DNA of 36,496 nucleotides from Candidatus Iainarchaeum sp. (GTDB taxonomy: Archaea > Iainarchaeota > Iainarchaeia > Iainarchaeales > UBA10191), in the NCBI GenBank assembly GCA_043801115.1, contig JAZDMJ010000052.1:1-36496 (forward strand), written 5' to 3'. Below the pieces are notes generated by a model that worked only from the letters and a program-made list of their open reading frames with translations, made no database searches and was not told where the DNA came from. Below are positions 2,507 through 33,484 of the stretch, piece by piece. Numbering within the stretch: position 1 is the stretch's first letter; each line of letters begins with the position of its first letter. The translations under genes were made by a program, and so were the position numbers.

Positions 2507-5500
2507 TTGTCTTCAAAAATAGCATTGGCGTTGCTCGTTTTCGCGCTAATTTTGCCCGCCGCTTTTGCCGCGAATTTGGTTTCCGATTTCAAGCAATGCG
2601 CGAACAACGATTCTCCTTACACTTTGGGCGAATGCCACTGGATTGGTTCCATCATCCAGCAAAGCAATTCTCAATATTTTGAAGGCATGAGTGTCGCCCA
2701 GAGGCTTGTTTTTACAAATATTTCTTCAACCACTGGAAATATTCACACTCTAACTTTAAGCCACCAGGCAATGAAAAGCTCGATCCATGCATATGATTTC
2801 ATTACTTCTTACAACCAGTCAAACAATCCTGCAATTACTTTGAACGCGTGCGGAGAAGAAATAGGTCCTCCTGGAACGCTTGGAGCAACATGCACTTCTC
2901 TTCGCTCCGGTTCAAACTATATTTTGGTTGATGTTCCTGACGCAATGGGTTCTGTTGGAGGAGACGATGTTGCCAGCAGGGTTGCGGCATACGAAACTGC
3001 ATTTGGAAACAGGCAGATCAAAATTTATGGAAACTCTCCAATAACTTCTGCTTCTCTTTCTTTTGATGGATACGACACTGATGCCAATGATGCAACTCAA
3101 GTCCACGCATTTTATACTTTGACTTGGACTTCTTCCTCTACTCAAGTATTGATTGAAATGGCTGGCCATCTTTCTATTAGCGGAGACGGCACTGGCATTA
3201 GTTATGGTCCTGGAAAAGGCTCATCAAGCATTTCAGGAGGCCCATACCATTTCAGTTTGCACAGGCTTGATGGCGACTCTCTTGGAAAACAAGATAACCA
3301 GATAAAAGGAGCAGACATTCAAGTGCCTCCTCAGGGAACTCTTACTGTCATAAAAACAGTAATAACTGACAATGGCGGAACAGCAGTTTCTTCAAGCTTT
3401 AATGTTCATGTAAAAACAGGCGGAGTAGATGTCGCTGGTTCTCCTGCTGCAGGTTCTTCAACTGGAACAGCATATACTTTGGATCCAGCAACTTATGTTG
3501 TAAGCGAAGATTCTCTTGCAGGATATTTGCAAACAAGCATTGTTTGCGACAACCAAGCAACAGACACTGTTACAATAGCAAACGGAGACAACAAAGTTTG
3601 CACAATTACAAACAATGATGTCGCGCCAACTCTTACTTTGATAAAAACAGTAACAAACGACAATGGCGGAACTAAAGCAGTTGCAGACTTTCCACTATTT
3701 ATTGGAACAACTCAGGTTACTTCTGGAGTTGCAAATGTTTTGAATGCAGGAAGTTATACTGCCTCTGAAACAAATCAGGCAGGCTATGCAGCTGGTGTTT
3801 GGGGTGGAGACTGCGCTTCAAACGGCACAGTAACTCTCGCAGTCGGAGACAACAAAACTTGTACTATTACAAATGATGATGTTGCTCCTAAGTTGCATCT
3901 TAGAAAAGTTGTAGTTAATGACAATGGTGGAACTGCTGTTGATACAGCTTGGACTCTTACTGCGAATGGTGTTGGGTCAAATGATGTTTCTGGATCAACT
4001 CCTGTTGATTCAGGCGCAGGCCTTATTGCTGACAATTTTTCTTTAAGTGAAAGTGGTCCTGCTGGTTATGCTTCATCTGATTGGGTTTGTTTTGGTGGAA
4101 CTCAGGTTGGTTCTAATATCACTATTGGAATAGGTCAGGAAGCAACTTGTACTATTACGAATGATGATATTCAGCCTAAGTTGACTCTGGTGAAAACTGT
4201 TGTGAACAATTATGGTGGGCAATTGGTTGTTGCTGACTTTCCGTTGTTTATTTCTGGGACTCCTGCAACTAGTGGAACAAAATATGGTTTGAATGCTGAC
4301 AGTTATACTGCTAGTGAAACAAATCAGACTGGTTATTCTGCTGGTTCATGGGGTGGAGATTGCGCAGCAGATGGTTCAATTACTCTTGCAGTTGGAGATG
4401 ATAAGACATGCACGATTACAAATAGTGATATTGAACCAAAGCTAAAGCTTGTTAAAAAAGTAATAAACGACAATGGTGGAACTCTTGGTGTTGGAGATTT
4501 TGATTTGTTTGTTGGCCAAACAAATGTTGACAGCAATGTATTCAATGGCTTTAATGCTGGAAGCTATGTTGCAAGCGAAGTACAGCAGTATGGTTATGCT
4601 GCTTCTGATTGGAGCGGAGATTGCGCTTCAGATGGAAGCATTACTCTTTCAGTCGGAGATGAAAAAACTTGTTACATTACAAACAACGATATTGCTCCAA
4701 AGCTTACTTTGATAAAATATGTTACAAACGATAATGGAGGAACTTTGGAAGTTAAGGACTTTCCATTATTTATTTCTGGAAACCCCGCGGTTTCAGGGCA
4801 AACATATGACTTGAATGCAGGCACACAGACAGCAAGCGAAACACAACAGTATGGCTATTCTTCAACTGGCTGGGCAGGAGATTGTGCAACAAACGGAACA
4901 ATAACTCAATCAGTTGGAGATGTAAATACATGCACAATAACAAATGACGACATTCAACCAACAATTACTTTGGTAAAGCTTGTAAACAACAATTTCGGAG
5001 GAACAAAGCAAGTTGCTGACTTCCCGTTATTTGTTGATCAAACAAGCGTAACTTCTGGAGTTCCTTTGGGAATAGATACTGGCTCTTACACTGCAAGCGA
5101 AACCGAATCATATGGTTACACTGCCTCTGATTGGAATGGGGATTGTTCTTCAAACGGTTCTGTAACTGTTTCGGTTGGAGATAATAAAGTTTGTTACATC
5201 CAAAACAGCGACATACAACCAAAGCTTACAGTTATCAAGCACGTGATCAACGATAACGGCGGAAACAACATTGCTTCTGATTTTACAATAAATGTTGACG
5301 GAACAAGCGCTAGCCCTTCAAGCTTTGCAGGTTCTGAGGATGGAAATCTTGTATTGCTGAATGCAGGAGATTACAGCGCAGATGAAGAAGCGTTTTCAGG
5401 ATATGCAAAAAATCTTTCAGGAAACTGCAGTGGAACAATTTCAATCGGAGACGAAAAAACTTGTACTATAACAAACGATGACATTGCGCCGACAATTACT

Positions 5501-7042
5501 TTGGTGAAAGTTGTGAACAATACTTTCAACGGGCAGGCTGTTCCTTCTGATTTCGATTTGAATATTGATGACAGCATTGTTTTGCAGAATACTGCTATTG
5601 AAGTAACTGCAAATTCTGCTCATTCAATCGGCGAATCAAACTTGTATGGCTACGAGTTTGTTTCAATAACTGGAGATGCAAAATGTCCGGCGGTATTGGG
5701 TGGAAGCGTTACTTTGGATGAAGGAGAAAGCATTACTTGTACAATTACAAACCAAGACATTCAGCCAAAGCTCACTTTGGTGAAAACAGTAATAAATGAT
5801 AATGGCGGAACATTGGAAGCAGGAGACTTTGCATTATACGTTTCAGGAAACCCAGTTACAAGCGGGGTTGCGAACGGCTTTGATGCAGGAAGCTATACAG
5901 CAACAGAAGACAATGTTTCAAGCTATGAAGCAAGTTCTTGGACTGGAGACTGTGCAGCAGATGGTTCAGTTACTCTTTCAGTCGGAGATGAAAAAACTTG
6001 TTACATTACAAACAATGACAAAAGGCCGCAGTTGATTGTAATAAAGCACGTGATCAACGATAACGGCGGAACTAAAGCTGCTTCAGACTTTTCAATTTCT
6101 GTTGATGCAAACAGTCCTTCTCCTTCAAGCTTTGCAGGAGAAGAAAGTCCTGGAACAATTGTTGACTTGAATGCAGGAACTTACAATGTTGACGAAGGAA
6201 CAGTGTTTGGCTATGAAAAAACTTTGTCCTCTGACTGCAGCGAAACAATTTCTGTGGGAGAAACAAAAACATGCACAATTACTAACAACGATATTTCCCC
6301 ACAATTGATTGTAATAAAGCACGTGATAAATGACAACGGTGGAACACTGCAAGCTCCAGACTTTACAATAACTGTAATTGGAACAAATGTTTCTCAAAGT
6401 TCTTTTGCGGGAGCAGAAAGCCCTGGAACAGCAATAACTCTCAATGCAGGCTCTTACAATGTTAACGAGCCAAACACTTTGGATTATGGGAAAACATTAT
6501 CTGCTGATTGCAGCGGAACAATAGATTTGAACCAGACAAAAACCTGTACAATAACAAACGACGATATTCCTGCAACAAGAACACTTGGCTTTTGGCAGAC
6601 TCACACAATTTTCACTACTTGGATTTTCCAAAACAAGCTTGGAAGCGCTTTGCTGATTGGAAGTTCGCCTCATAGGGGAACTCTTACAACAACTGCACAA
6701 ATCTTTGGAGGATTTTATGCAAGCATTCCATACAAATCAACTGGAGCAAAAAGGCAAAATGTTGACAAGACAAGAATACAACTATTGCAGCAATTGCTTG
6801 CAGCAAAACTAAACTGCGCTGCTTTCACTTGCACTTCAAGCGCTCAGAGCTTGATTTCTCAGGCAGATGCAGCATTTGCTTCCGGAAACATTTCTCAAAT
6901 GAATTCCCTTGCATCACAGCTTGATGCATACAACAATTCAGGAGACAGTATTTCTTTCCCAGCAGGATTGCCTGCTCAGGGAAGCGCTACTCCTGATGCG
7001 TCAAAAGCAATTGCAAACTTTGCGTATTGGGATGCGCCGTAA
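2507..7042 (+). CDS. Giant secreted surface/adhesin-like protein (1511 aa) with 12 tandem beta-sandwich-type repeats
   Basis: TTG at 2507 is the only in-frame start after the stop at 2489-2491. It gives a Sec-type signal peptide, MSSKIALALLVFALILPAAFA/ANL. The protein has a ~275-aa N-terminal domain, then 12 repeats of ~90 aa. Each repeat reads P(K/T/Q)L(T/I)(L/V)(I/V)K.V.N(D/N).GG......DF ... GDC ... GD.K.C.I.N.D(I/V).P. A ~155-aa C-terminal domain starts at TRTLGFWQTH. There is no C-terminal TM segment. Confidence 0.85.
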   Translation: MSSKIALALLVFALILPAAFAANLVSDFKQCANNDSPYTLGECHWIGSIIQQSNSQYFEGMSVAQRLVFTNISSTTGNIHTLTLSHQAMKSSIHAYDFITSYNQSNNPAITLNACGEEIGPPGTLGATCTSLRSGSNYILVDVPDAMGSVGGDDVASRVAAYETAFGNRQIKIYGNSPITSASLSFDGYDTDANDATQVHAFYTLTWTSSSTQVLIEMAGHLSISGDGTGISYGPGKGSSSISGGPYHFSLHRLDGDSLGKQDNQIKGADIQVPPQGTLTVIKTVITDNGGTAVSSSFNVHVKTGGVDVAGSPAAGSSTGTAYTLDPATYVVSEDSLAGYLQTSIVCDNQATDTVTIANGDNKVCTITNNDVAPTLTLIKTVTNDNGGTKAVADFPLFIGTTQVTSGVANVLNAGSYTASETNQAGYAAGVWGGDCASNGTVTLAVGDNKTCTITNDDVAPKLHLRKVVVNDNGGTAVDTAWTLTANGVGSNDVSGSTPVDSGAGLIADNFSLSESGPAGYASSDWVCFGGTQVGSNITIGIGQEATCTITNDDIQPKLTLVKTVVNNYGGQLVVADFPLFISGTPATSGTKYGLNADSYTASETNQTGYSAGSWGGDCAADGSITLAVGDDKTCTITNSDIEPKLKLVKKVINDNGGTLGVGDFDLFVGQTNVDSNVFNGFNAGSYVASEVQQYGYAASDWSGDCASDGSITLSVGDEKTCYITNNDIAPKLTLIKYVTNDNGGTLEVKDFPLFISGNPAVSGQTYDLNAGTQTASETQQYGYSSTGWAGDCATNGTITQSVGDVNTCTITNDDIQPTITLVKLVNNNFGGTKQVADFPLFVDQTSVTSGVPLGIDTGSYTASETESYGYTASDWNGDCSSNGSVTVSVGDNKVCYIQNSDIQPKLTVIKHVINDNGGNNIASDFTINVDGTSASPSSFAGSEDGNLVLLNAGDYSADEEAFSGYAKNLSGNCSGTISIGDEKTCTITNDDIAPTITLVKVVNNTFNGQAVPSDFDLNIDDSIVLQNTAIEVTANSAHSIGESNLYGYEFVSITGDAKCPAVLGGSVTLDEGESITCTITNQDIQPKLTLVKTVINDNGGTLEAGDFALYVSGNPVTSGVANGFDAGSYTATEDNVSSYEASSWTGDCAADGSVTLSVGDEKTCYITNNDKRPQLIVIKHVINDNGGTKAASDFSISVDANSPSPSSFAGEESPGTIVDLNAGTYNVDEGTVFGYEKTLSSDCSETISVGETKTCTITNNDISPQLIVIKHVINDNGGTLQAPDFTITVIGTNVSQSSFAGAESPGTAITLNAGSYNVNEPNTLDYGKTLSADCSGTIDLNQTKTCTITNDDIPATRTLGFWQTHTIFTTWIFQNKLGSALLIGSSPHRGTLTTTAQIFGGFYASIPYKSTGAKRQNVDKTRIQLLQQLLAAKLNCAAFTCTSSAQSLISQADAAFASGNISQMNSLASQLDAYNNSGDSISFPAGLPAQGSATPDASKAIANFAYWDAP
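3335..6571 (+). repeat. Twelve tandem ~270-nt domain repeats inside the giant surface-protein gene
   Basis: Units begin at GTLTVIKTVITDNGGT and end at TCTITNDDIP. Two subtypes are visible: DFPLFI..T.V.SG and DF(S/T)I.VD....SPSSFAG.E. The array contains a 46-nt exact duplicate at 4641-4686 and 5970-6015. Confidence 0.85.
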
Positions 7043-25528: not shown

Positions 25529-26647
25529 TTAAAACTTGGCGGGCTTGCATAAAATAAGCGCGTAATCCTCTTGTGGGGAAAGGTACAATTGGAGGATGAC
25601 GAAGCCCGAGTCCGCGAGCAAAATCTGCAATTGCTTTGGGGTCGCCTTGTACGAAGTCATGACCAAAATGTTGTCTCCTTTTCGGAGAAGGATTTGCCTG
25701 CTGCCGAGCTTCAGCTTGCATGCTCTTTTCATGACAAAATGGGCTTCGGCCTGGCTTTTTTCGCGGTTGAACGAAACGACGAATTTTCCGTCGTGTTCGG
25801 AAACTCCAAAATAGTTCAACGTGTTTAGCATGGCGACTTTTGCTTCCGGGCTGTTTCTGTAATGGTCAAAAATTTTCGAAATCCTTCCCAAGTCGAACAG
25901 TTCGATTCCGACCAGCAGATTGTCTTCCAACGTCATGGAGTCGCGCAAGTTTGCGAGCACTCTGGACTTGTCGGAAACATTTCCCACTGTGTTTCCCAAG
26001 AAAAGGAACAGTGACTTTTTGAAATTTTTTTCGCGAATGCTTTCCATTTCTTCGGCGAGATTGGATTGCTCGAAATCCGCCACGACAAAGCGCGTGTTCA
26101 GTTTTGGAAACCTCTTTTCGAGATTGGTTTTGGCGAGCGCAATCATTTCGGGGCTGATGTCGAACGCGATGTATTTAGGCCTTGCAAGGCGCTTCATTTC
26201 TTGGATGAAGGGGAACGCTTTTTCGCCCGTGCCGCATCCAATGTCGACGATGTTGGCCTTTCCAACGTCTTGCACGATTCTTTTTGCATTTTCCTGTATC
26301 AACTCGTTTTCCATTTTTCCCAAGCCATATGTTTTGCTCTCAACCGTCTTTTTCCAGTTTTCCGCGCCCTTTCGGAGGTATTCGAATTTGAGCGGAATCT
26401 CCTTCCTTCCACGGAGCGCGGTCAGGAATTCGGCCGTTTGCTTGGTCGAGTCGAAAAATCCGCTCGTTCTCGTTTCTTTCTGCTGGGAAGGAAATTGGAT
26501 GCCATGCTTGCGGCAGTACTCGATGGCATTTTCTTCCGTGCCCAGATGGCGCACGACTTTCTGTTTCGCTTTTCCGTCTTTGGAAACGTTTTCAACCAGT
26601 TGGAAATAGGCCCTTCCGTTGACTATTTTCTTGCGGACGAAAGACAT
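25529..26647 (-). CDS. EgtD-like (histidine-N-alpha-methyltransferase family, Methyltransf_33-type) SAM methyltransferase with a ~55-aa basic N-terminal extension
   Basis: The motifs are IVDIGCGTGEKAFPFI, YIAFDISPEMI, FVVADFEQ, LFLFLGNTVGNVSDKSRVLANLRDSM..DNLLVGIEL, and a C-terminal half (FNREKSQAEAHF....LRKGDNILVMTSYK) with the EgtD-type layout. The extension reads MSFVRKKIVNGRAYFQLVENVSKDGKAKQKVVRHLG. Confidence 0.6.
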   Translation of the reverse strand: MSFVRKKIVNGRAYFQLVENVSKDGKAKQKVVRHLGTEENAIEYCRKHGIQFPSQQKETRTSGFFDSTKQTAEFLTALRGRKEIPLKFEYLRKGAENWKKTVESKTYGLGKMENELIQENAKRIVQDVGKANIVDIGCGTGEKAFPFIQEMKRLARPKYIAFDISPEMIALAKTNLEKRFPKLNTRFVVADFEQSNLAEEMESIREKNFKKSLFLFLGNTVGNVSDKSRVLANLRDSMTLEDNLLVGIELFDLGRISKIFDHYRNSPEAKVAMLNTLNYFGVSEHDGKFVVSFNREKSQAEAHFVMKRACKLKLGSRQILLRKGDNILVMTSYKATPKQLQILLADSGFVILQLYLSPQEDYALILCKPAKF

Positions 26648-26701: not shown

Positions 26702-28150
26702 ATGAACCTGCGCGTCGCCGGGCTTTTCCCACAAGGCCCTTACGTGTCTCCGGCTGGAGAGAAGGAGTTTTTGGAGCCTTTCGGGCTGGAGCGGATTCTC
26801 GGCGTGGCCCAGGCAAAAGGGTGCCAAGTAGGGCTTTTTTCGCTGTATGACTGCGATGTAGAGGAATGCCTGCGGCGCATTGTTTCCTTCAAGCCGGATA
26901 TTCTCGCGATTTCGGCCATGACCCCTCAAATCAACCTTGCTCTCGAGATGGCGGAAAAAGCGAAAAAGACTCTTTCGGATGTTTTTATTGTATTGGGAGG
27001 CTATCACGCGACTTTTGATCCTTTGCTGGCGCGGCTTCCATTTGTGGACGCGTGCATTTTGGGCGAAGGGGAAGAAACTTTTGCTGAATTGTTGGAATGT
27101 ATTTGCGAAAAAAAGTCTTTCGATAATGTGTTGGGGCTTTCGTACAAGAAAAACTCTTCCGTGAAAGTCAACCTGCGCCGACCGCGCATCCGCGACCTCT
27201 CCAAGGTTCCGCCTGCTTTTCGCCCTACTTTCATACGCGAACTGCGCAATTATTCCCTGACTTTTCCCGCACCTTCCCAACAGACTGGAGTCGTTTGCGA
27301 AACATTTTCGGTCGGCTGCCCGTTTTCGTGCACGTTTTGCACGAATGCTTCCTTTTACGGTTCGCAGGCGGTTTACGAAGATGCCGGCAGCGTTGTTTCG
27401 CGCGTTCAAAAAGACGTGGAACAGTTCGGCGTGAACTCGCTTTTTTTCACGGATTTGGAGTTTACGGCAAATAGTTCAAAAGTTTTCGAATTGTGCGACG
27501 CCTTGATTGAAAGCGGTCTTTCAGAAAAGATATTTTGGGAATGCTTGAGCAATATTTCGACTGCGCGAGACAAAAAACTGCTCGAAAAAATGCACGAGGC
27601 GGGCTGTCGGAAAATTGGCTGGGGAATCGAATCGTTGAGTCAGAATGTTCTTGATTCCTACCACAAGCCGTTGAAGTTTTCCTTCTGCCAAGAAGTTCTC
27701 CAAAATTCTTCGGACGTTGGAATCCTCAATTCGGGGTTTTACATGATTGGCAGTTCGTTGGAATCCTTAAAGGATTTTCTGCAATACCCTTCCCTCCTCG
27801 CCAAGCTAGCCATCGACCGTCTGCGCGTGTCGCTCTTGACTCCCTTGCCAGGCTCCGTGGATTTTGTGGAAATGAAGCGAATGGGACTTTTGTTGCACGA
27901 AAACTGGAAATTGTACGACACGTGCCATCTGGTCTGGAAACATCCTTCTATTTCTTCTGCTGAATTGGAAAAGGCGGCGACAGACTTGACGGAGCGCTTC
28001 TATTTGGAGCCTGCGTATGAGGAAAGGGTTTGGAAAAACATTGCCCGATTTCCCGAACTTCACTTGTCCTATGCCGAATTCTTTCAAAGCATTTCGAGCG
28101 AATACCCTTCGCTGAAGCCGTTGGCAGACCGCTTTCGGGCGCCATTTTAA
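26702..28150 (+). CDS. B12-binding-domain radical SAM enzyme (class B-type)
   Basis: The N-terminal Rossmann-like cobalamin-binding-type domain includes ILAISAMTPQ, VLGGYHATF and ILGEGEETF. The radical SAM cluster motif is CPFSCTFC. The product is 482 aa. Confidence 0.8.
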   Translation: MNLRVAGLFPQGPYVSPAGEKEFLEPFGLERILGVAQAKGCQVGLFSLYDCDVEECLRRIVSFKPDILAISAMTPQINLALEMAEKAKKTLSDVFIVLGGYHATFDPLLARLPFVDACILGEGEETFAELLECICEKKSFDNVLGLSYKKNSSVKVNLRRPRIRDLSKVPPAFRPTFIRELRNYSLTFPAPSQQTGVVCETFSVGCPFSCTFCTNASFYGSQAVYEDAGSVVSRVQKDVEQFGVNSLFFTDLEFTANSSKVFELCDALIESGLSEKIFWECLSNISTARDKKLLEKMHEAGCRKIGWGIESLSQNVLDSYHKPLKFSFCQEVLQNSSDVGILNSGFYMIGSSLESLKDFLQYPSLLAKLAIDRLRVSLLTPLPGSVDFVEMKRMGLLLHENWKLYDTCHLVWKHPSISSAELEKAATDLTERFYLEPAYEERVWKNIARFPELHLSYAEFFQSISSEYPSLKPLADRFRAPF

Positions 28151-28176: not shown

Positions 28177-29484
28177 ATGAAAAAGCAGCCGCATTTGGCC
28201 AGAGTGTTGGGGCTGGGCCAGGCCACGCTGACGGGGTTGGGCATTATTTTCGGCGCGGGCATTTATGTGCTCGTGGGAAAGGCGGCGGGCATTGCGGGCA
28301 ACCAGGTGTGGCTTTCTTTTTTGTTGGCCGCGCTGGTGGCGGGACTGACAGGCCTTTCGTATGCCGAGCTTTCTTCCATGTTTCCCAAAGCGAGTGCAGA
28401 GTACGAGTATGGAAAGAACGCGTTCGGAAAGCGGGCGGGTTTTTTGATTGGCTGGCTCGCGCTGATTGCGGGCATTGTTTCCGTTGCCACGGTCGCGCTG
28501 GGCTTTGGCGGATATTTTTCCGCGCTGACGGGAGCGCCCATTGCGTGGCTTGCGGTGGGAATCATCGCGTTCTGTTCTTTGATTGTTTTTTTGGGCGTCC
28601 AGCAGAGCGTGTGGATTGCCATCTTGTGCACGCTGATTGAAACCGCGGGCCTCGTCATCATAGTCTTGCTCGGCCTTCCCTATTTGAACAATCCCGCGCT
28701 CTTCGACTTTTCTTCTTTCAGCCCTTTTTCCATGCTGGCCGGGGCCGCGCTTATCTTTTTCGCCTTTATCGGTTTTGAAGAAATCACGCGTTTGAGCGAG
28801 GAAACCAAAAAGCCTTCCAAAACCATTCCCAAAGCGCTCTTACTGGCCATTGTCATTTCTTCCATTGTGTACGTGCTCGTCGCCGCCACCGCAGTCTCGG
28901 TGTTGGGCCCGGAAAAACTCGCAAACTCGAACGCTCCCCTGGCCGATGTTGCCTCTCAATTGTACGGCAGCGGCGCTTTTCGCGTGCTCACGTTTACGGC
29001 AATTGTTTCCACGTTTTCGACCGTGCTATTGATTTTGCTCGCCGCTTCGCGATTGATGTATGGAATTTCCCGCGACAAGGAATTGCCCGAACTCGTTTCG
29101 TATATTCACCCGAAAACGCAAACGCCCCTGTTCGCGATTTTGATGGTTGCGCTCTTGTCCTCTTTTTTGGCCGTTCTGGGAGACATTTCCCTCGTCGCCA
29201 ACGCGACCGACTTTGTATTGTTTTTGGTATTCATCGCCGTCAACTTGACCGTCATCATGCTTCGCTATAAAATGCCCCTTGCAAACCGCCCATTCAAGGT
29301 TCCGCTGAAAGTGGGAAAGTTTCCCGTTCTCCCCCTGCTCGGAATCCTTTTCAGCGCTCTCATTGCTTCCGCGATTTCTTTGGAAATCATGGCCTTCATG
29401 CTCGCCATGACTATTGCAGGACTATTGTATTTCGAATTCCACTCGCGCAAATTGAAACAGCAGAAGCGAAAGGTTGCGCTTTAA
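28177..29484 (+). CDS. APC-superfamily amino acid/polyamine permease
   Basis: The protein has about 12 TM helices. The N-terminal signature is LGLGQATLTGLGIIFGAGIYVLVGKAAGIAGNQVWLSFLLAALVAGLTGLSYAELSSMFPKASAEYEY. Confidence 0.85.
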   Translation: MKKQPHLARVLGLGQATLTGLGIIFGAGIYVLVGKAAGIAGNQVWLSFLLAALVAGLTGLSYAELSSMFPKASAEYEYGKNAFGKRAGFLIGWLALIAGIVSVATVALGFGGYFSALTGAPIAWLAVGIIAFCSLIVFLGVQQSVWIAILCTLIETAGLVIIVLLGLPYLNNPALFDFSSFSPFSMLAGAALIFFAFIGFEEITRLSEETKKPSKTIPKALLLAIVISSIVYVLVAATAVSVLGPEKLANSNAPLADVASQLYGSGAFRVLTFTAIVSTFSTVLLILLAASRLMYGISRDKELPELVSYIHPKTQTPLFAILMVALLSSFLAVLGDISLVANATDFVLFLVFIAVNLTVIMLRYKMPLANRPFKVPLKVGKFPVLPLLGILFSALIASAISLEIMAFMLAMTIAGLLYFEFHSRKLKQQKRKVAL

Positions 29485-29508: not shown

Positions 29509-30009
29509 ATGGAAGTTTCAAGTCGGAAACAGTTGGGCTACTTGCTTTTGATTTTTGGCGTTGTATTGGCGCTCGTGCTGGGTTTTGTCAAAATTTCGTA
29601 CGACGCGCAGGCCGCGCAATTGTGCCAACTCACTCCCCAAGACCAGATGGCGCAGTGTCCCGTGCACACGGACAATTCTTCGTGGTTGTTCATGGCCGGT
29701 TTTGCCATTGCCGCGGTATTGGTCGTAGTTGGGGCCTATTTCGCTTTTTTCGAAAAGCGCGAACAGGACCCGCGCCTGGAAATCGCGAAAAAGGCATTTA
29801 AAGAGGTGGACGTTTCCAAGCTTTCGGAAGAAGAAGGAAAAGTGTATACGCTGTTGAAGAACGCCAGCGGGTCGTTATTCCAATCCGACTTGGTGCGCGA
29901 AACAGGCTATTCCAAAGTGAAACTCTCTCGCATTCTCGACCGTTTGGAACAGTTGGAATTGGCCGAGCGAAAGCGCCGTGGCATGGCAAACTTGGTCGTA
30001 TTGCGCTAA
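29509..30009 (+). CDS. Membrane-tethered winged-HTH transcriptional regulator (two N-terminal TM helices)
   Basis: TM1 is LGYLLLIFGVVLALVLGFV. The loop SYDAQAAQLCQLTPQDQMAQCPVHTDNSS carries 2 Cys plus Met and His. TM2 is WLFMAGFAIAAVLVVVGAYFAFF. The cytoplasmic wHTH is EEEGKVYTLLKNASGSLFQSDLVRETGYSKVKLSRILDRLEQLELAERKRRGMANLV. Confidence 0.65.
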   Translation: MEVSSRKQLGYLLLIFGVVLALVLGFVKISYDAQAAQLCQLTPQDQMAQCPVHTDNSSWLFMAGFAIAAVLVVVGAYFAFFEKREQDPRLEIAKKAFKEVDVSKLSEEEGKVYTLLKNASGSLFQSDLVRETGYSKVKLSRILDRLEQLELAERKRRGMANLVVLR

Positions 30010-30091: not shown

Positions 30092-30805
30092 ATGAGTGTT
30101 CAATCCAAGCTCGACATCGCGGCTTTCGGAATCCTGGCCGTGGCGTTGATAGTTTCAGTATTGAATTTCGCGGCATTGTCCGGCGTTCAAACTTCGGCCG
30201 CCAATGCCATGGCGGCGGCAGCGGCTTCCCCATCAACAGGATTGTCTGGCGCTTCCAGCGGTTCGTCTTCGGCGGCTTCCACGATTTCCTTTTCGGAGAT
30301 CCAGCCCAAAGGCGTTCCCGCAGTTTACGGCGCTGAATTGGGAATTTCGTACGACGACATCAGCGCTTCGAACCCGCAAAAGGCGGACGCGACCGACCAA
30401 AAACTGGCCAGTCTGGAAAACAGCATTTCGCTGGACGGCAACGCGCTCGCGCGCTATATCTTGATAACGAACTCGATTAGTTGTGAATACTGTTGCGGCG
30501 CTCCGGCCATTACGACGGCGGACGGAAGTCCGGCGTGCGGTTGCGCGCACAGCGGAGCCATGCGGGGCCTGGCCAAGTATTTGATCAAACAGCACGGTTC
30601 CGAGTTTTCGGACATCCAAATTTTGGAAGAATTGGGAAAGTGGAAAACATTGTACTTTCCTTCCAATATGGTCCAGAAAGCCAATGTTCTCGACGCGCAA
30701 GGAATCGCCTTGAACTTTGTGAGCCTGGCTTCCAACCAATACCGCGGAATCGAGCAGGGCGCTACTGTATCGCAAGGTTCGACCCAGCAAGTGGGAGGAT
30801 GTTAG
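30092..30805 (+). CDS. N-terminally anchored extracytoplasmic Cys-rich protein ending in QQVGGC, uncharacterised
   Basis: The ATG at 30092 follows the SD ggagg at 30079-30083. The order is a TM anchor, a Ser/Ala-rich linker and a globular part. That part carries SCEYCCGAPAITTADGSPACGCAHSGAMRGL. The C-terminus is TQQVGGC. Confidence 0.7.
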   Translation: MSVQSKLDIAAFGILAVALIVSVLNFAALSGVQTSAANAMAAAAASPSTGLSGASSGSSSAASTISFSEIQPKGVPAVYGAELGISYDDISASNPQKADATDQKLASLENSISLDGNALARYILITNSISCEYCCGAPAITTADGSPACGCAHSGAMRGLAKYLIKQHGSEFSDIQILEELGKWKTLYFPSNMVQKANVLDAQGIALNFVSLASNQYRGIEQGATVSQGSTQQVGGC

Positions 30806-30806
30806 C

Positions 30807-30911
30807 ATGAACTGGTTCAAACGAAATCCCAAGCCGGAAGAAAAATTGGAAACAGTTCCAATCGAATCCGGAGAAGAAAAGAAAAAAAAGCGGAAAGGAG
30901 GTTGTTGTTGA
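30807..30911 (+). CDS. 34-codon micro-ORF, polybasic with C-terminal GGCC
   Basis: This ORF is absent from the ORF track because it is shorter than 60 aa. The product is MNWFKRNPKPEEKLETVPIESGEEKKKKRKGGCC. The ATG lies 1 nt after the upstream stop and 8 nt after ggagga. Its TGA directly abuts the next ATG at 30912, so the ORF exactly fills the gap between the two genes. Confidence 0.4.
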   Translation: MNWFKRNPKPEEKLETVPIESGEEKKKKRKGGCC

Positions 30912-31190
30912 ATGGAAAAAGAACAGTCCAAAAGCGTTGAAGGCAGGGGATTGAACTGGAAAACGTACGCGCTGTTGACGGTTGTGGGAATCGTTCTCGT
31001 GCTCGGCGTCGTGCAAGCGTTTCAAATCAGCGCCTTGCAGCAGCAGTTCGGCGGAAACGGAACCGCTTCTCTTTCGAGTGGAGGAGGAGACGCATACGCT
31101 CAAATGATGGCGGAAATGCACCCCGGCCAGGCAAGTTCTTCGAACACTGGCACTACGAGCAATACCGCCCAGCAAGTGGGAGGATGCTAG
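30912..31190 (+). CDS. Small N-terminally anchored protein with a Met/His stretch, ending in QQVGGC
   Basis: The 92-aa product has the TM helix TYALLTVVGIVLVLGVV, then a Gly/Ser-rich region, then YAQMMAEMHPGQ. The C-terminus is AQQVGGC. The last 19 nt before the Cys codon wobble base are identical to those of the 30092 gene. Confidence 0.65.
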   Translation: MEKEQSKSVEGRGLNWKTYALLTVVGIVLVLGVVQAFQISALQQQFGGNGTASLSSGGGDAYAQMMAEMHPGQASSSNTGTTSNTAQQVGGC

Positions 31191-31194
31191 TTTC

Positions 31195-31734
31195 ATGAAG
31201 CGATGGCTCGGGATTCCGGCCGCGTTGGCCGGAATTCTTTCCTTTTCAAGCATTGCGCACGCGCACTGCCCGCTGTGCACGGCAGCGGTGGGCGGCGCTG
31301 TCATCGGCGCTGAATACTTGGGCTTGGGAGCGGGAATCGTCGGATTGTTCGTCGGAGCCTTTGCCATTTCGACGGGAATTTGGATTGGAAGGAAAATCAA
31401 AACCCGGTACATTCCCTTCCAATTGCCCTTGATTGTGCTCGCTTCTTTCCTCTTAACCGTTATTCCATTGCTCGGCGTTTCCCCCCAAACGCTTTACATT
31501 CCCGTATTGTGGTTCGGACAGGCGGGAACCGCGTTCAACAAAGTGTATTTCACTCCCAAACTATTGCTCGGCTCGGCCATCGGCGCCCTTCTCACCCTCT
31601 TCGCGTTGAAGCTCCACACCTTTCTCAAAAAGTGGAAGGGAAGAGTATTGTTTCCCTTTCAGGGAATCGCCTTCACGCTCGCAATCCTGCTAATGGCCAG
31701 CGGCGTTTTGTACATTGCATGGGCGGGCGGTTGA
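31195..31734 (+). CDS. Polytopic membrane protein; predicted signal peptide followed by HCPLC
   Basis: The N-terminus is MKRWLGIPAALAGILSFSSIAHA/HCPLCTAAVGG, followed by about 4 more hydrophobic helices. The ATG lies 11 nt after ggagga. The stop is directly followed by the next ATG. Confidence 0.7.
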   Translation: MKRWLGIPAALAGILSFSSIAHAHCPLCTAAVGGAVIGAEYLGLGAGIVGLFVGAFAISTGIWIGRKIKTRYIPFQLPLIVLASFLLTVIPLLGVSPQTLYIPVLWFGQAGTAFNKVYFTPKLLLGSAIGALLTLFALKLHTFLKKWKGRVLFPFQGIAFTLAILLMASGVLYIAWAGG

Positions 31735-32208
31735 ATGAAAGAAGAATGGATGAAAAAAATGCGCGCCTTTTCCGGCAAGGAATTGGACTTGTCCAAGGAT
31801 GAGGACTTGAGCATTGCGCTTATGAATTTGATTTCGCTCGAAGAGCATCTCGCTTTCAGCGCGGCCAAGAGCGGGGGCGAAAAATTTCTGCAAATGCTTT
31901 CCGAAATCCGCCCCTTGCGCAAGCAATTATTGCAGCACTTCGTGCAGGAGAGCGAGGCCGAAGAATGGTGCATTTCCAAACACTTGCTTGCCGGAAGCAT
32001 GCGCTTGTTCGAAGCGGGAACGAAAGAACTGGACGCGGGGCGAAAGGAAGAAGCGCAGTCCTTTTTCGACAGCGCCTTCCAGCTCTACTCCTTGTTCTTC
32101 GCCCTGCACTTGAAGCTCGTTCCTCCGAATGAAGTGGTTGCAAAGCCCGTTTCTTCCGGCCGTTGGGCGGAAATGGTCAAAAAACTCGTGGACTGCTGCA
32201 AGGAGTGA
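31735..32208 (+). CDS. Soluble helical protein ending in DCCKE, uncharacterised
   Basis: The 157-aa product has no TM segment. It contains SIALMNLISLEEHLAFSAAKSGGEKFLQML and ends in the vicinal Cys pair VDCCKE. Confidence 0.6.
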   Translation: MKEEWMKKMRAFSGKELDLSKDEDLSIALMNLISLEEHLAFSAAKSGGEKFLQMLSEIRPLRKQLLQHFVQESEAEEWCISKHLLAGSMRLFEAGTKELDAGRKEEAQSFFDSAFQLYSLFFALHLKLVPPNEVVAKPVSSGRWAEMVKKLVDCCKE

Positions 32209-32212
32209 AAGA

Positions 32213-33091
32213 ATGAGAGCGGAAGTCTTTCACGGAATCCTCGCCGGACTGTTATTGTTGACGGCGTACGTGGGCCTTTTGTACGGATTGAACGGTTCCG
32301 CACACGTGCTAGAACAGTTCCGCGACTTCGGAATTTTAATCGCGGTTATTGTAGTCGGTTTCGGCTTTCAAGTGGGATTGTTTTCGTACGCGCGCAGCGA
32401 GTTGAAGGCCAAGCAGGCCCGCGCGCAGCTCGCGGCCACGGGAAGCGTCAGTGGGGGAACCATGATCGCCTGCTGCCTGCACCACGTTACGGAAATTCTT
32501 CCCCTCGTCGGCGCCACCGCTTTTGGCTTGGCGTTGGCCGAGTACACGTTCCAGTTCCTCTTCGTCGGCGCCCTTTCCGCGATTGTGGGAGCACTGGCAA
32601 TGCTTGCTGTTTTGCAGCAGCACAACGTGTTTCCCTTTCCTTCCGTGCAGCGCGTTCCGTGGAAGGAAGCGCGCAACTTCGGAGTTTCTTTTGCGCTCAT
32701 CGCAGCCGTTGCCGTTTTTCTGTTCTCCTCGTTTCCCTTGAATACAATTGCCGCCTCTCCCAACTCCCTCTCGCTTTCTTCCCAGTCCGATTCGCAAAAC
32801 AGCGTGCAAGTGGATGTAACTCCCCGAATTTCTTCCGCGCAGGCTGCGTTTGAAATTAGTTTTACGACGCACTCGGGCAGCATGGACTTTCGAGTGGAAG
32901 ACATTTCGCGGTTGGAAGACGATTTGGGAAATTCCTATCGCGTTCTTTCTTGGAACGGTTCTCCGCCAGGAGGACACCACAGAAGCGGAACGCTTTCTTT
33001 CGAACCCTTGTCCCCGCAAGCCAAAACGATTACATTGAAATTGTCCAACGTGGGCGGAGTGGATCGCGTGTTCCAATGGAGTTTGAAGTAA
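32213..33091 (+). CDS. Membrane protein with intramembrane ACCLHH motif and C-terminal extracytoplasmic beta-rich domain (GGHH motif)
   Basis: The start was trimmed to the ATG at 32213, after the SD aaggag. About 5 TM helices are present. The motif GGTMIACCLHHVTEILPLVG is reminiscent of the vicinal-Cys helices of MerT/MerF-type transporters. The C-terminal domain reads VQVDVTP...FEISFTTHSGSMDF...WNGSPPGGHHRSGTLSF. Confidence 0.65.
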   Translation: MRAEVFHGILAGLLLLTAYVGLLYGLNGSAHVLEQFRDFGILIAVIVVGFGFQVGLFSYARSELKAKQARAQLAATGSVSGGTMIACCLHHVTEILPLVGATAFGLALAEYTFQFLFVGALSAIVGALAMLAVLQQHNVFPFPSVQRVPWKEARNFGVSFALIAAVAVFLFSSFPLNTIAASPNSLSLSSQSDSQNSVQVDVTPRISSAQAAFEISFTTHSGSMDFRVEDISRLEDDLGNSYRVLSWNGSPPGGHHRSGTLSFEPLSPQAKTITLKLSNVGGVDRVFQWSLK

Positions 33092-33092
33092 A

Positions 33093-33251
33093 ATGGTCAA
33101 CGTAAAAAAGGCAGTCGATCTGATTTGCGGCATGGAAGTCGATCCGACAAAGGCTATCTCCGCATACGGCCACTTCTTTTGTTCGGATTCGTGCGCGAAA
33201 GCGTTTGTGGTCGAAAAACAGGAAAATCGTGAAAGGAAAGGAATGGAATGA
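33093..33251 (+). CDS. YHS/TRASH-domain metal-binding protein (52 aa)
   Basis: This ORF is absent from the ORF track. The product is MVNVKKAVDLICGMEVDPTKAISAYGHFFCSDSCAKAFVVEKQENRERKGME. The CGM.V...........FCS..C..F pattern is the YHS/TRASH signature. The stop overlaps the next ATG in an ATGA arrangement. Confidence 0.7.
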   Translation: MVNVKKAVDLICGMEVDPTKAISAYGHFFCSDSCAKAFVVEKQENRERKGME

Positions 33252-33484
33252 ATTTGGGAGAAACGATTGCCCGCATTCGCGAAAACCACTTGCTGATGAT
33301 GGCGGTGTGTTGCATTGTTCCCGTCGCGTTCGCAGCAATGCTGTTCGTGCTTGGTTTCCGGACGTACGCGTTATGGTTGGTCATTTTGTTGTGCCCGCTC
33401 ATGCACTTGTTCATGATGAAAGACATGCATTCGGCGGAGAAAAAAGAACATTCGTGCGACAAACATAAATCGGAAGGAGATTGA
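33248..33484 (+). CDS. DUF2933-like small membrane protein (CC and CPLMH motifs)
   Basis: HLLMMAVCCIVPVAFAAMLFVLG....LVILLCPLMHLFMMKDMH matches my recollection of the DUF2933 family, which is typically found in heavy-metal loci. Confidence 0.65.
   Translation: MNLGETIARIRENHLLMMAVCCIVPVAFAAMLFVLGFRTYALWLVILLCPLMHLFMMKDMHSAEKKEHSCDKHKSEGD

Follow-up and report, generated by a model that had tools for sequence, protein, structure and literature searches.

We describe here a short C-terminal peptide, termed the tail, that is carried by two neighbouring membrane-anchored proteins of Candidatus Iainarchaeum sp. The window analysed is a 36,496-nt stretch of contig JAZDMJ010000052.1 (assembly GCA_043801115.1), and all positions are counted from its first letter. 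Two open reading frames (ORFs) of the window, coding for proteins of 237 and 92 aa, end in QQVGGC. Comparison with their relatives identifies QQVGGC as the local version of a conserved C-terminal pentapeptide, whose common form reads [M/Q]-V-G-G-Cys-COOH and whose superfamily-wide form, as drawn from the alignments, reads [M/Q/W/F]-x-G-x-Cys-COOH, often with L-P-x before it. The tail is a selected peptide feature of the whole family, present in 115 of the 120 best homologues of the 237-aa protein, whose relatives occur in 441 genomes of a scan with one genome per GTDB species, and a recent local duplication is not its source. We propose, at somewhat less than an even chance, that the tail would serve as a thiolate arm on a tether and would capture or relay Cu(I) on the outer side of the membrane.

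The tail in the window

The two tail genes and the sequence between them have the following features:

30092..30805, + strand: the 'big' tail protein, 237 aa, with an N-terminal transmembrane (TM) anchor, a low-complexity linker, a helical domain, a Ser/Gly linker and QQVGGC
30785..30802, + strand: Q-Q-V-G-G-C tail codons of the 237-aa protein, with GGAGG at 30794-30798, 8 nt before ATG 30807
30807..30911, + strand: micro-ORF of 34 codons ending in ...KKKKRKGGCC, at a coupled-start position and in frame with the 92-aa gene, stop TGA 30909-30911
30912..31190, + strand: the 'small' tail protein, 92 aa, with a short N-terminus, a TM helix, QAFQI (31014-31028), the Met/His motif DAYAQMMAEMHPGQ (31089-31130), a linker and QQVGGC (31170-31187)

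An earlier sequence-only reading of the window had pointed out that both ORFs end in QQVGGC and a TAG stop, and this was confirmed, with the tail codons at 30785-30802 in the 237-aa ORF and at 31170-31187 in the 92-aa ORF. The exact run of 19 nt that it reported is also correct: segments 30783-30805 and 31168-31190 match at 22 of 23 nt, the wobble base of the Cys codon being the sole mismatch. A survey of the 36.5-kb window, covering every stop-to-stop frame with 25 or more codons on either strand, found GGC or GGCC ends in three adjacent ORFs only, and from this rarity we deduced that the pairing of the tails exceeds chance. A GGAGG-type Shine-Dalgarno or coupling element, 5-12 nt before the next start, was indeed found inside the Gly-Gly codons; we count spacers of 8, 10 and 11 nt to the next ATG where 8, 11 and 12 had been given, a difference of counting convention.

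The same reading considered the two proteins dissimilar apart from an anchor and a linker. This description needs one addition, since both also carry the motif [QN]xxQ[ILVM] where the TM helix reaches its outer end. In a set of 82 loci (1.12 Mb), made up of the window (W) and 81 comparison loci, the motif was found at this place in 71 of 86 small proteins, in 31 of 68 big proteins, and in 17 of 651 other proteins with an N-terminal TM helix.

Conservation of the tail and of the big protein

The 237-aa protein has more than 1709 database relatives, every one of them from DPANN archaea (Diapherotrites/Iainarchaeum, Micr-, Aenigm-, Woese-, Pace- and Nanoarchaeota). The tails of the best homologues were of the [MQ]VGGC type in 96 (MVGGC), 16 (QVGGC) and 3 cases (the close variants MIGGC, AVGGC and MAGGC). 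An exhaustive profile search of 1.84 billion representatives yielded 312 clusters at 50% identity, and the canonical tail was present in 105 of the 149 representatives inspected; most of the others were fragments or carried variants such as MVGDC, MVGSC, WVGDC, QVGSC and QQGGC. Hundreds of DPANN genomes carry the motif. Counting back from the terminal Cys (-1), Gly(-3) and the Cys itself are essentially invariant.

The alignment of the big family revealed an N-terminal TM helix, a variable linker, a conserved domain, a Ser/Gly/Ala linker that varies in length and sequence, and then the invariant tail. The invariant columns of the domain are C-E-Y-C-C, C-G-C-x-H-S, M, R and K-W-K...F-P; in the window copy C-E-Y-C-C lies at 30482-30496 and C-G-C-x-H at 30536-30550. 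Exactly six Cys residues follow the TM helix in 66 of 68 big proteins, five in the ectodomain plus the tail Cys. The AlphaFold2 model of the 237-aa protein has a mean predicted local distance difference test (pLDDT) score of 88 and consists of the TM helix and an all-helical domain. Residues 231-237 score ∼75 versus ∼64 for residues 221-230, which we do not read as docking of the tail.

Pfam and NCBIfam scans of all proteins of the cassette to which the two genes belong (see below) gave no match for the 237-aa and 92-aa proteins or for the neighbouring HCPLC and DCCKE proteins. Foldseek searches of the PDB with the AlphaFold models of the 237-aa and HCPLC proteins gave no match at E≤0.001, and a hidden Markov model search of PDB sequences gave none either. 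No description of the tail motif or of the cassette families was found in Pfam, NCBIfam, the PDB or the searchable literature.

Among big proteins with a long region on the N-terminal side of the TM helix, His-rich stretches were observed in 21 of 86 and CC or CxxC motifs in 11 of 86, about a third taken together (P0006, P0021, P0115 and others). Because of these N-terminal regions, possible metal-binding motifs lie on both sides of the membrane, the N-terminal side and the outer part of the big family.

Selection acts on the peptide

Within the 82 loci the tail motif was found at the end of 160 ORFs with 45 aa or more, and its codons were compared. Val is encoded by GTA (54), GTT (48), GTC (33) and GTG (22); Gly(-3) by GGA (93), GGG (23), GGC (22) and GGT (22); Gly(-2) by GGC (52), GGT (46), GGA (35) and GGG (25); and Cys by TGT (91) and TGC (69). 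The stop, which follows the Cys directly in 160 of 160 cases, is TAA (87), TGA (43) or TAG (30). With no synonymous codon missing, it is the peptide that is under selection.

We nevertheless considered that the cause could lie in the DNA, either in a recent duplication or gene conversion and/or in a GGAGG Shine-Dalgarno sequence for a coupled downstream gene, the peptide then being incidental. The window pair, with 22 of 23 nt identical, contains the longest run among 92 within-locus tail pairs. Across the loci, downstream starts usually lie 1-5 nt past the tail stop, so that a Shine-Dalgarno sequence must overlap tail codons and often falls on those for Gly-Gly, and GGA at Gly(-3) is enriched (58% against a background of 39.5% in these genes, p=2e-6). 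However, the GGA bias is no stronger when a gene follows (58 of 95 tails with a close downstream gene, 18 of 35 without), and a Shine-Dalgarno-like string is present in only 93 of 160 tails, although the amino acids are conserved. Met, Val and Cys, which are beyond the reach of a Shine-Dalgarno sequence, are conserved too, 59 of the 92 within-locus pairs part after 2 nt, and the tail persists across 441 species and divergent subfamilies. A DNA-level cause is thereby refuted as the main explanation and retains hardly any probability; it survives as a secondary effect and, in the window, as possible local gene conversion.

Because the GGA bias is independent of a following gene and all synonymous codons occur, the Shine-Dalgarno role would be at most secondary and not the reason for tail conservation. 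Hence, of the dual coding proposed for these codons, the overlap with Shine-Dalgarno sequences stands and draws weak support from the GGA enrichment, but dual coding fails as the cause of conservation. The DNA identity over 19 nt did not hold up as a conserved feature, being the maximum among the 92 pairs; it is a local matter, either of gene conversion or of chance.

Small tail proteins, action in trans and restriction to one cassette

A word-indexed homology search with the 92-aa protein returned the query alone, and the small family was gathered from the loci instead. One or two small tail ORFs (50-150 aa) lie directly after the big gene in 72 of 82 loci, and 86 small tail proteins were found in this position. 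They consist of an optional N-terminal extension, one TM helix, the [QN]xxQ[ILVM] motif, often a Met/His motif, a linker and the tail, with no ectodomain. The tail Cys is the sole Cys after the TM helix in all 86, and a Met/His motif (ETYEEMMARMHPDQ-type, WTEDEKMMYEHHG-type or WTEDEKMMYEHHGTLPAR) is present in 46 of them. A [DE]CCK-type or CxxC motif occurs in the N-terminal extension of 16 of the 31 small proteins with a long N-terminal side, and [DE]CCK or His-rich stretches are frequent in the N-terminal, presumed cytoplasmic, regions of tail proteins. Lys plus Arg residues before versus after the TM helix amount to 1.76 versus 1.08 in small proteins and to 2.13 versus 0.87 in big proteins. 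This excess of positive charge before the helix, together with the Cys-rich domain and the presence of DsbA genes nearby, suggests that the tail probably faces outward, with the N-terminus inside the cell.

In about seven loci the big protein lacks the tail but its small neighbour has it. These tail-less big proteins (L027, L030, L049, L059, L066 and L081) stop right after the globular domain (...NKYRGIENGN), without the linker, and the small neighbour keeps MVGGC or QVGSC. The big protein of locus L024 carries a fused WTEDEKMMYEHHG motif and has no tail at its end. The retention of the tail by the small neighbour of a tail-less big protein indicates that the tail can act in trans.

When metagenomes were scanned without bias for the codon pattern ATGGTNGGNGGNTGYTAA, 120 loci yielded 155 matches. 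Roughly 100 of these were genuine ORF ends, belonging to 28 big proteins of the CEYCC type, 55 small TM proteins and a divergent big subfamily; the remaining matches were due to chance and fell in tiny or non-coding frames. In both the 1.12 Mb of loci and the metagenome scan, every genuine tail ORF belongs to the big, divergent-big or small proteins of the cassette, which argues that the tail is not a general tag on varied cargo.

The divergent big subfamily has the signature C-E-F-C-C-G ... C-G-C-x-H-N-P-A ... KWKT[LI]WFP ... L-P-G-M-V-G-G-C, and was found in metagenome loci L092, L112, L118, L119, L130, L134, L150, L170, L181, L186 and L203. Some of its members are 270-377 aa long, with extra N-terminal TM or His-rich segments, and the gene of L170 lies near that of a possible BlaI/CopY-like repressor, as read from the letters alone.

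Co-variation of tails within loci

Rare tail variants always agree between the partners of one locus, and no locus mixes an M tail with a Q tail. All tails are of the Q type in seven loci (W, L002 with three proteins, L006, L010, L013, L020 and L026); both proteins of L018 end in MAGAC, and those of L042 in TVGGC and VVGGC. A neighbour-joining tree of 180 big proteins requires at least 11 changes at position -5 and places the Q loci in at least four separate clades. In five of the seven Q loci (L006, L010, L013, L020 and L002) the agreeing partners differ at synonymous sites, and hence selection, not recent conversion, keeps the tails alike. The agreement of tails within a locus points to a common partner or a shared site.

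The micro-ORF between the tail genes

A micro-ORF of 34 codons (MNWFKRNPKPEEKLETVPIESGEEKKKKRKGGCC) exists, as had been noticed, and fills the gap between the two tail genes. It shares its frame with the 92-aa ORF, from which it is separated by a lone TGA at 30909-30911: there are 105 in-frame nt from ATG 30807, ending AAGGAGGT-TGTTGT-TGA-ATG, where MEKEQSKS begins. The KGG codons of the micro-ORF (AAGGAGGT) are the Shine-Dalgarno sequence of the 92-aa gene, and the CC codons are its spacer. ATG 30807 is at the usual start site of a small gene, 1 nt past the stop, and at this site the closest orthologue, in L006, reads TAAcATGgaaaaagaatgttgc, that is MEKECCK. [DE]CCK precedes the TM helix in the N-terminal region of many orthologues; the 92-aa protein of the window is without it, with QS at the place of the CC of L006, and CC is also how the micro-ORF ends.

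When the micro-ORF peptide and the 106-nt spacer were compared with the 81 other loci by tblastn and blastn, only low-complexity noise was obtained, and the junction elsewhere is usually 1-5 nt. The proposal that the micro-ORF is a third member of the tail group is not supported, there being no counterpart in the 81 other loci and its KGG being the Shine-Dalgarno sequence of the in-frame 92-aa gene. It is probably translated, because it has a good Shine-Dalgarno sequence and a coupled start position, and probably represents a non-conserved, lineage-specific in-frame insertion or a split N-terminal extension.

We found no support for the suggestion that its polybasic-CC end resembles a eukaryotic lipidation signal. 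Compared with eukaryote-type prenylation signals, the tail has its Cys at -1 after Gly-Gly and is not a CaaX box; the polybasic CC end of the micro-ORF is without counterpart in the 81 loci.

The gene cassette and its neighbourhood

The tail genes are accompanied by the following genes:

29509..30009, + strand: membrane-bound winged-helix regulator, with two TM helices and a Cys/His loop, then a helix-turn-helix (Pfam DUF7343 1.3e-10, MarR_2 1.3e-6)
31195..31734, + strand: 179-aa membrane protein (HCPLC), with a signal peptide ending ...AHA, then invariant H-C-P-L-C-T (31264-31281)
31735..32208, + strand: 157-aa helical protein without a TM helix, ending in DCCKE (last codons 32191-32205); no Pfam or NCBIfam match
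32213..33091, + strand: membrane protein; ACCLHH lies within a TM segment, and the C-terminal beta domain is DUF5643-like (Pfam DUF5643 at 5.9e-6, a weak match that misses the curated cut-off)
33093..33251, + strand: 52-aa Cys-rich protein, YHS/TRASH-like or metallothionein-like (weak Pfam matches, Metallothio_Pro 1.4e-3 and YHS 0.088; context, not proof)
33248..33484, + strand: DUF2933 membrane protein (Pfam DUF2933 8.5e-8, above the cut-off), of a family that recurs in such metal-gene neighbourhoods and is also present in L001 and L002
35536..36288, + strand: member of the Met-rich membrane-protein cluster comp5; the window copy has no Pfam match

Orthologues of the DUF7343/MarR regulator are present in 63 of 82 loci, usually just upstream, and in 51 of the 60 loci with at least 2.5 kb of upstream sequence; the protein is likely to regulate the cassette. 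The loop between its two TM helices holds C-x9-C-P-V-H (CQLTPQDQMAQCPVH), which may be an extracytoplasmic metal- or redox-sensing loop of a membrane-bound one-component regulator.

The HCPLC family (∼177 aa) was found in 48 loci, and in at least 38 of the 56 loci with 3 kb of downstream sequence. After the signal peptide its members have the invariant residues A23 H24 C25 P26 L27 C28 T29, a site that resembles A-x-A cleavage, and the mature N-terminus is probably His-Cys-Pro-Leu-Cys. Such an N-terminal His-Cys-x-x-Cys is superficially like the Ni-hook of the nickel superoxide dismutase NiSOD or histidine-brace sites. The AlphaFold2 model of the protein has a mean pLDDT of 90. The HCPLC protein is a candidate partner or acceptor for the tails.

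The DCCKE end that had been noticed on a fourth protein is real and conserved: [DN]CC[KR]E(W) ends were found in 32 of 37 orthologues of this ∼168-aa family (37 loci). The protein is probably cytoplasmic, because it has no TM helix. Two more neighbour families have Cys-Cys ends, CCxxW in 9 of 9 members of one, and CC, CCH or CCP in 5 of 5 of the other. Overall, CC within the last six residues was observed in 51 of 1785 locus genes, 46 of them in three families.

The ACCLHH-type membrane family (cluster comp3) occurs in 44 loci, with the ACCxHH motif in 18 of 67 members. The HMA-fused Met-rich membrane protein of comp5 occurs in 35 loci, and its representative has an N-terminal HMA domain (3.6e-12) and a CGSCCG motif. 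A DUF411 neighbour was found in 27 loci, and after the tail genes in 20 of 56 loci. Further neighbours are a Met-rich protein (20 loci), PadR-TRASH (16), DUF5676 (16), DsbA (14) and DUF302 (12), and thioredoxin-repeat, DsbD_TM and glutaredoxin genes recur near the tail genes. In individual loci there are also genes for a multicopper oxidase, a cupredoxin, DUF2933 and a CopA-type ATPase with YHS, and the neighbourhood of L004 has a PCYCGC gene. The tail genes and those of the HCPLC, DCCKE and CCxHH proteins form one tightly coupled operon, set in copper-type neighbourhoods with the regulator upstream.

Directly upstream of the cassette the window carries genes for a B12-binding radical S-adenosylmethionine (SAM) enzyme (26702-28150, + strand) and an adjoining amino-acid permease (28177-29484, + strand), and the permease is syntenic with the cassette in L001 and L004. 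A gene for an EgtD-like histidine-specific SAM methyltransferase (25529-26647, - strand; Methyltransf_33 3.3e-42) diverges from the radical SAM gene. These three genes could form a histidine-betaine or thiol-histidine pathway. Two very large proteins are encoded at 46-2394 (+ strand; 782 aa, five SpaA_2 prealbumin-like repeats plus PKD) and at 2507-7042 (+ strand; 1511 aa, 12 repeats), and may be surface proteins or adhesins.

The proposed role of the tail

The view that the tail is a thiol or metal arm on a flexible linker, already put forward in the sequence-only reading, fits the gene context and the Met/His motifs, and metal binding is its predicted part. In the mechanism that we favour, the terminal thiolate, aided by the Met or Gln at -5, would act as an arm tethered on the flexible linker. 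The metal captured by the arm at the membrane's outer face would be a thiophilic one, with Cu(I) as the most probable, and the ion would then be exchanged, in either direction, with the Cys5His cluster of the big protein, the HCPLC protein or both. A Met/Gln exchange is a ligand swap at the axial position of type-1 copper sites; used as an analogy, it makes the Met-to-Gln exchange in the tails, together with the Met/His motifs, fit copper ligation.

Several points weigh against this proposal. A lone Cys plus Met makes a weak metal site, and the Gln, Trp or Phe at -5 and the Asp, Ser or Glu at -2 of divergent members are not obvious metal ligands. Strict as it is, the conservation of Gly(-3) could equally well reflect recognition by an enzyme or a receptor, and the variants with Asp, Ser or Glu at -2 and Trp or Phe at -5 suit a recognition motif just as well. 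The copper context is one of neighbourhood association, and the DsbA and thioredoxin genes are just as compatible with a redox role. The positive-inside signal is of moderate strength, and the N-termini of some small proteins bear no charge. Finally, no residue of the big domain was found to co-vary cleanly with the M or Q state, the partial associations being confounded by phylogeny.

A redox function is the first rival that these points bring up. The terminal Cys would then form transient mixed disulfides with the Cys-rich ectodomain, the HCPLC protein or the DsbA/thioredoxin-like neighbours, or would staple the big to the small protein. Such a thiol-disulfide shuttle would account for the recurrence of DsbA, thioredoxin-repeat, DsbD_TM and glutaredoxin genes nearby, for the even number of Cys residues in the big protein (five plus the tail make six) beside the single unpaired Cys of the small ones, and for a tail that works in trans; flexible C-terminal Cys arms are moreover established in redox enzymes, as in the C-G-C tail of Erv2p and the C-terminus of thioredoxin reductase. 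We nonetheless judge it unlikely. It leaves unexplained the conserved Met or Gln at -5 and the Met/His motifs that half of the small proteins carry, known shuttles rely on pairs of Cys and not on a single one, the HMA, DUF411, TRASH, DUF2933 and CopA neighbours point to metal rather than to redox alone, and no Erv-, Dsb- or VKOR-like fold was detected (Foldseek against the PDB, no significant match). Less probable still is a private sorting signal, in which an enzyme of the cassette would read L-P-x-[MQ]-V-G-G-C to cleave, lipidate or attach the protein. Position-specific conservation, with the invariant Gly(-3) and terminal Cys and the frequent L-P-x, does resemble an enzyme site, the co-variation of the tails inside each genome would be expected of co-evolution with a single recognising protein, and several uncharacterised membrane proteins with novel folds are co-encoded. 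Yet a tag of this kind is hard to reconcile with its confinement to two protein types of one operon rather than varied cargo, with proteins that are already anchored N-terminally, and with the lack of the TM helix or basic tail after the motif that known C-terminal sorting signals need; no peptidase, sortase, archaeosortase or transferase domain was found among the annotated conserved neighbours.

The copper arm could also be one element of a wider system, a DPANN-specific trans-envelope metal relay made of at least five families without known relatives, with their reactive groups at chain termini; this extension we regard as doubtful. Outside, the relay would use C-terminal ...G-G-Cys-COOH on tethers and an N-terminal His-Cys-Pro-Leu-Cys freed by signal-peptide cleavage, and on the cytoplasmic side it would use Cys-Cys motifs at chain ends, [DE]CCK at the N-terminal and DCCKE and CCxxW at the C-terminal ones. 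The tails of one cell would all co-evolve with one receptor site. An alternative next to the relay, doubtful too, is that the tail Cys would bear a covalent intermediate or a modification, and not a metal.

Comparison with known systems

DPANN archaea are abundant and for the most part uncultured, and much of the gene content of their tiny genomes has no assigned function. The tail joins five or six families of hypothetical proteins into one cassette, in at least 441 species-level genomes, and gives the cassette a clear signature that can be tested, in the form of a tethered, invariant terminal Cys with co-variation between partners. The pentapeptide is a simple annotation marker, including for very small genes missed by gene callers, and the proteins with confident AlphaFold models and no PDB neighbours are good targets for structural and biochemical work. 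If the copper relay is true, it would show how cells without a periplasm and with a minimal proteome handle a toxic thiophilic metal at their surface, and would provide a new terminal-motif ligand set for metallochaperone chemistry.

Several known families and signals were considered and rejected. The PCYCGC family (PF13798) comprises small extracytoplasmic Cys-rich proteins with a C-G-C-x-H-like string, and a likeness to the big protein is apparent; unlike the tail proteins, PCYCGC proteins have no terminal tail, no Pfam match was found at E≤0.1, and hhalign against a bona fide PCYCGC protein gave a probability of 2.7% over 8 aligned columns. CopG/DUF411 (PF04214), a copper-cluster protein with a C-x-C-C motif, is likewise extracytoplasmic, has vicinal Cys residues and is encoded in copper-resistance loci. 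DUF411 is reported as having a thioredoxin-like fold. The tail proteins have no PF04214 match, DUF411 is a separate neighbour gene, and the model of the 237-aa protein is helical and without a PDB relative. Metallochaperones of the HMA (Atx1/CopZ) type do not apply either, neither tail protein having an HMA match, the model being helical and HMA occurring in neighbouring genes only. Ubiquitin-like or sulfur-carrier proteins (ThiS, MoaD, SAMP) are cytoplasmic, have a beta-grasp fold and expose Gly-Gly at or near the C-terminus; the big-protein model combines a TM helix with an all-helical domain, the small proteins have low-complexity sequence after their TM helix, and there is no ThiS/MoaD Pfam match.

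The signals of the PGF-CTERM/archaeosortase, LPXTG/sortase and GlyGly-CTERM/rhombosortase systems are also short conserved C-terminal motifs of surface proteins, sometimes with an L-P-x prefix. They consist, however, of a motif, a TM helix and a basic tail on many unrelated cargo proteins, whereas the tail described here is the last five residues and is found in one operon. An archaeosortase, exosortase or rhombosortase signal was rejected on the stop directly after the Cys in 160 of 160 tails and on the limitation of the carriers to cassette proteins (1.12 Mb of loci plus the metagenome scan), and a sortase LPXTG substrate on the absence of a TM helix after L-P-x-M-V-G-G-C and of a sortase domain in the annotated conserved neighbours. 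Nor is the tail a double-glycine leader (C39/ABC exporter), as its Gly-Gly is followed by a single C-terminal residue and no C39 or ABC genes are among the conserved neighbours.

The closest likenesses are of kind and not of descent. CTR1, a copper transporter of eukaryotes, has a C-terminal His-Cys-His (HCH) tail, and CupA, CopL and YcnI are membrane-tethered extracytoplasmic copper chaperones of Gram-positive bacteria. Like these, the tail proteins have a terminal thiolate motif or putative small copper module that is TM-anchored, a proposed hand-over of Cu and Met/His capture motifs nearby. Unlike them, they show no sequence or fold relation, their predicted copper ligands are one Cys plus Met or Gln after Gly-Gly, the tail occurs on two or three proteins per operon, some of them without a domain, and the cassette is archaeal and DPANN-specific. 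Swinging C-terminal Cys arms are found in MerA (Cys-Cys), thioredoxin reductase (Gly-Cys-Sec-Gly), Erv2p (Cys-Gly-Cys) and HypE (PR[IV]C-COOH). They share with the tail a Cys at or near the C-terminus and a flexible segment with Gly, and what they shuttle between sites is a metal, a covalent intermediate or electrons. The enzymes that bear them are cytoplasmic or organellar and have known folds, and each arm serves its enzyme's own active site, whereas the arm described here, which shows no homology to them, is probably extracytoplasmic, can be borne by a domain-less tether and can act in trans. The tail is a previously undescribed feature, akin by kind to tethered terminal-Cys arms or metallochaperones.

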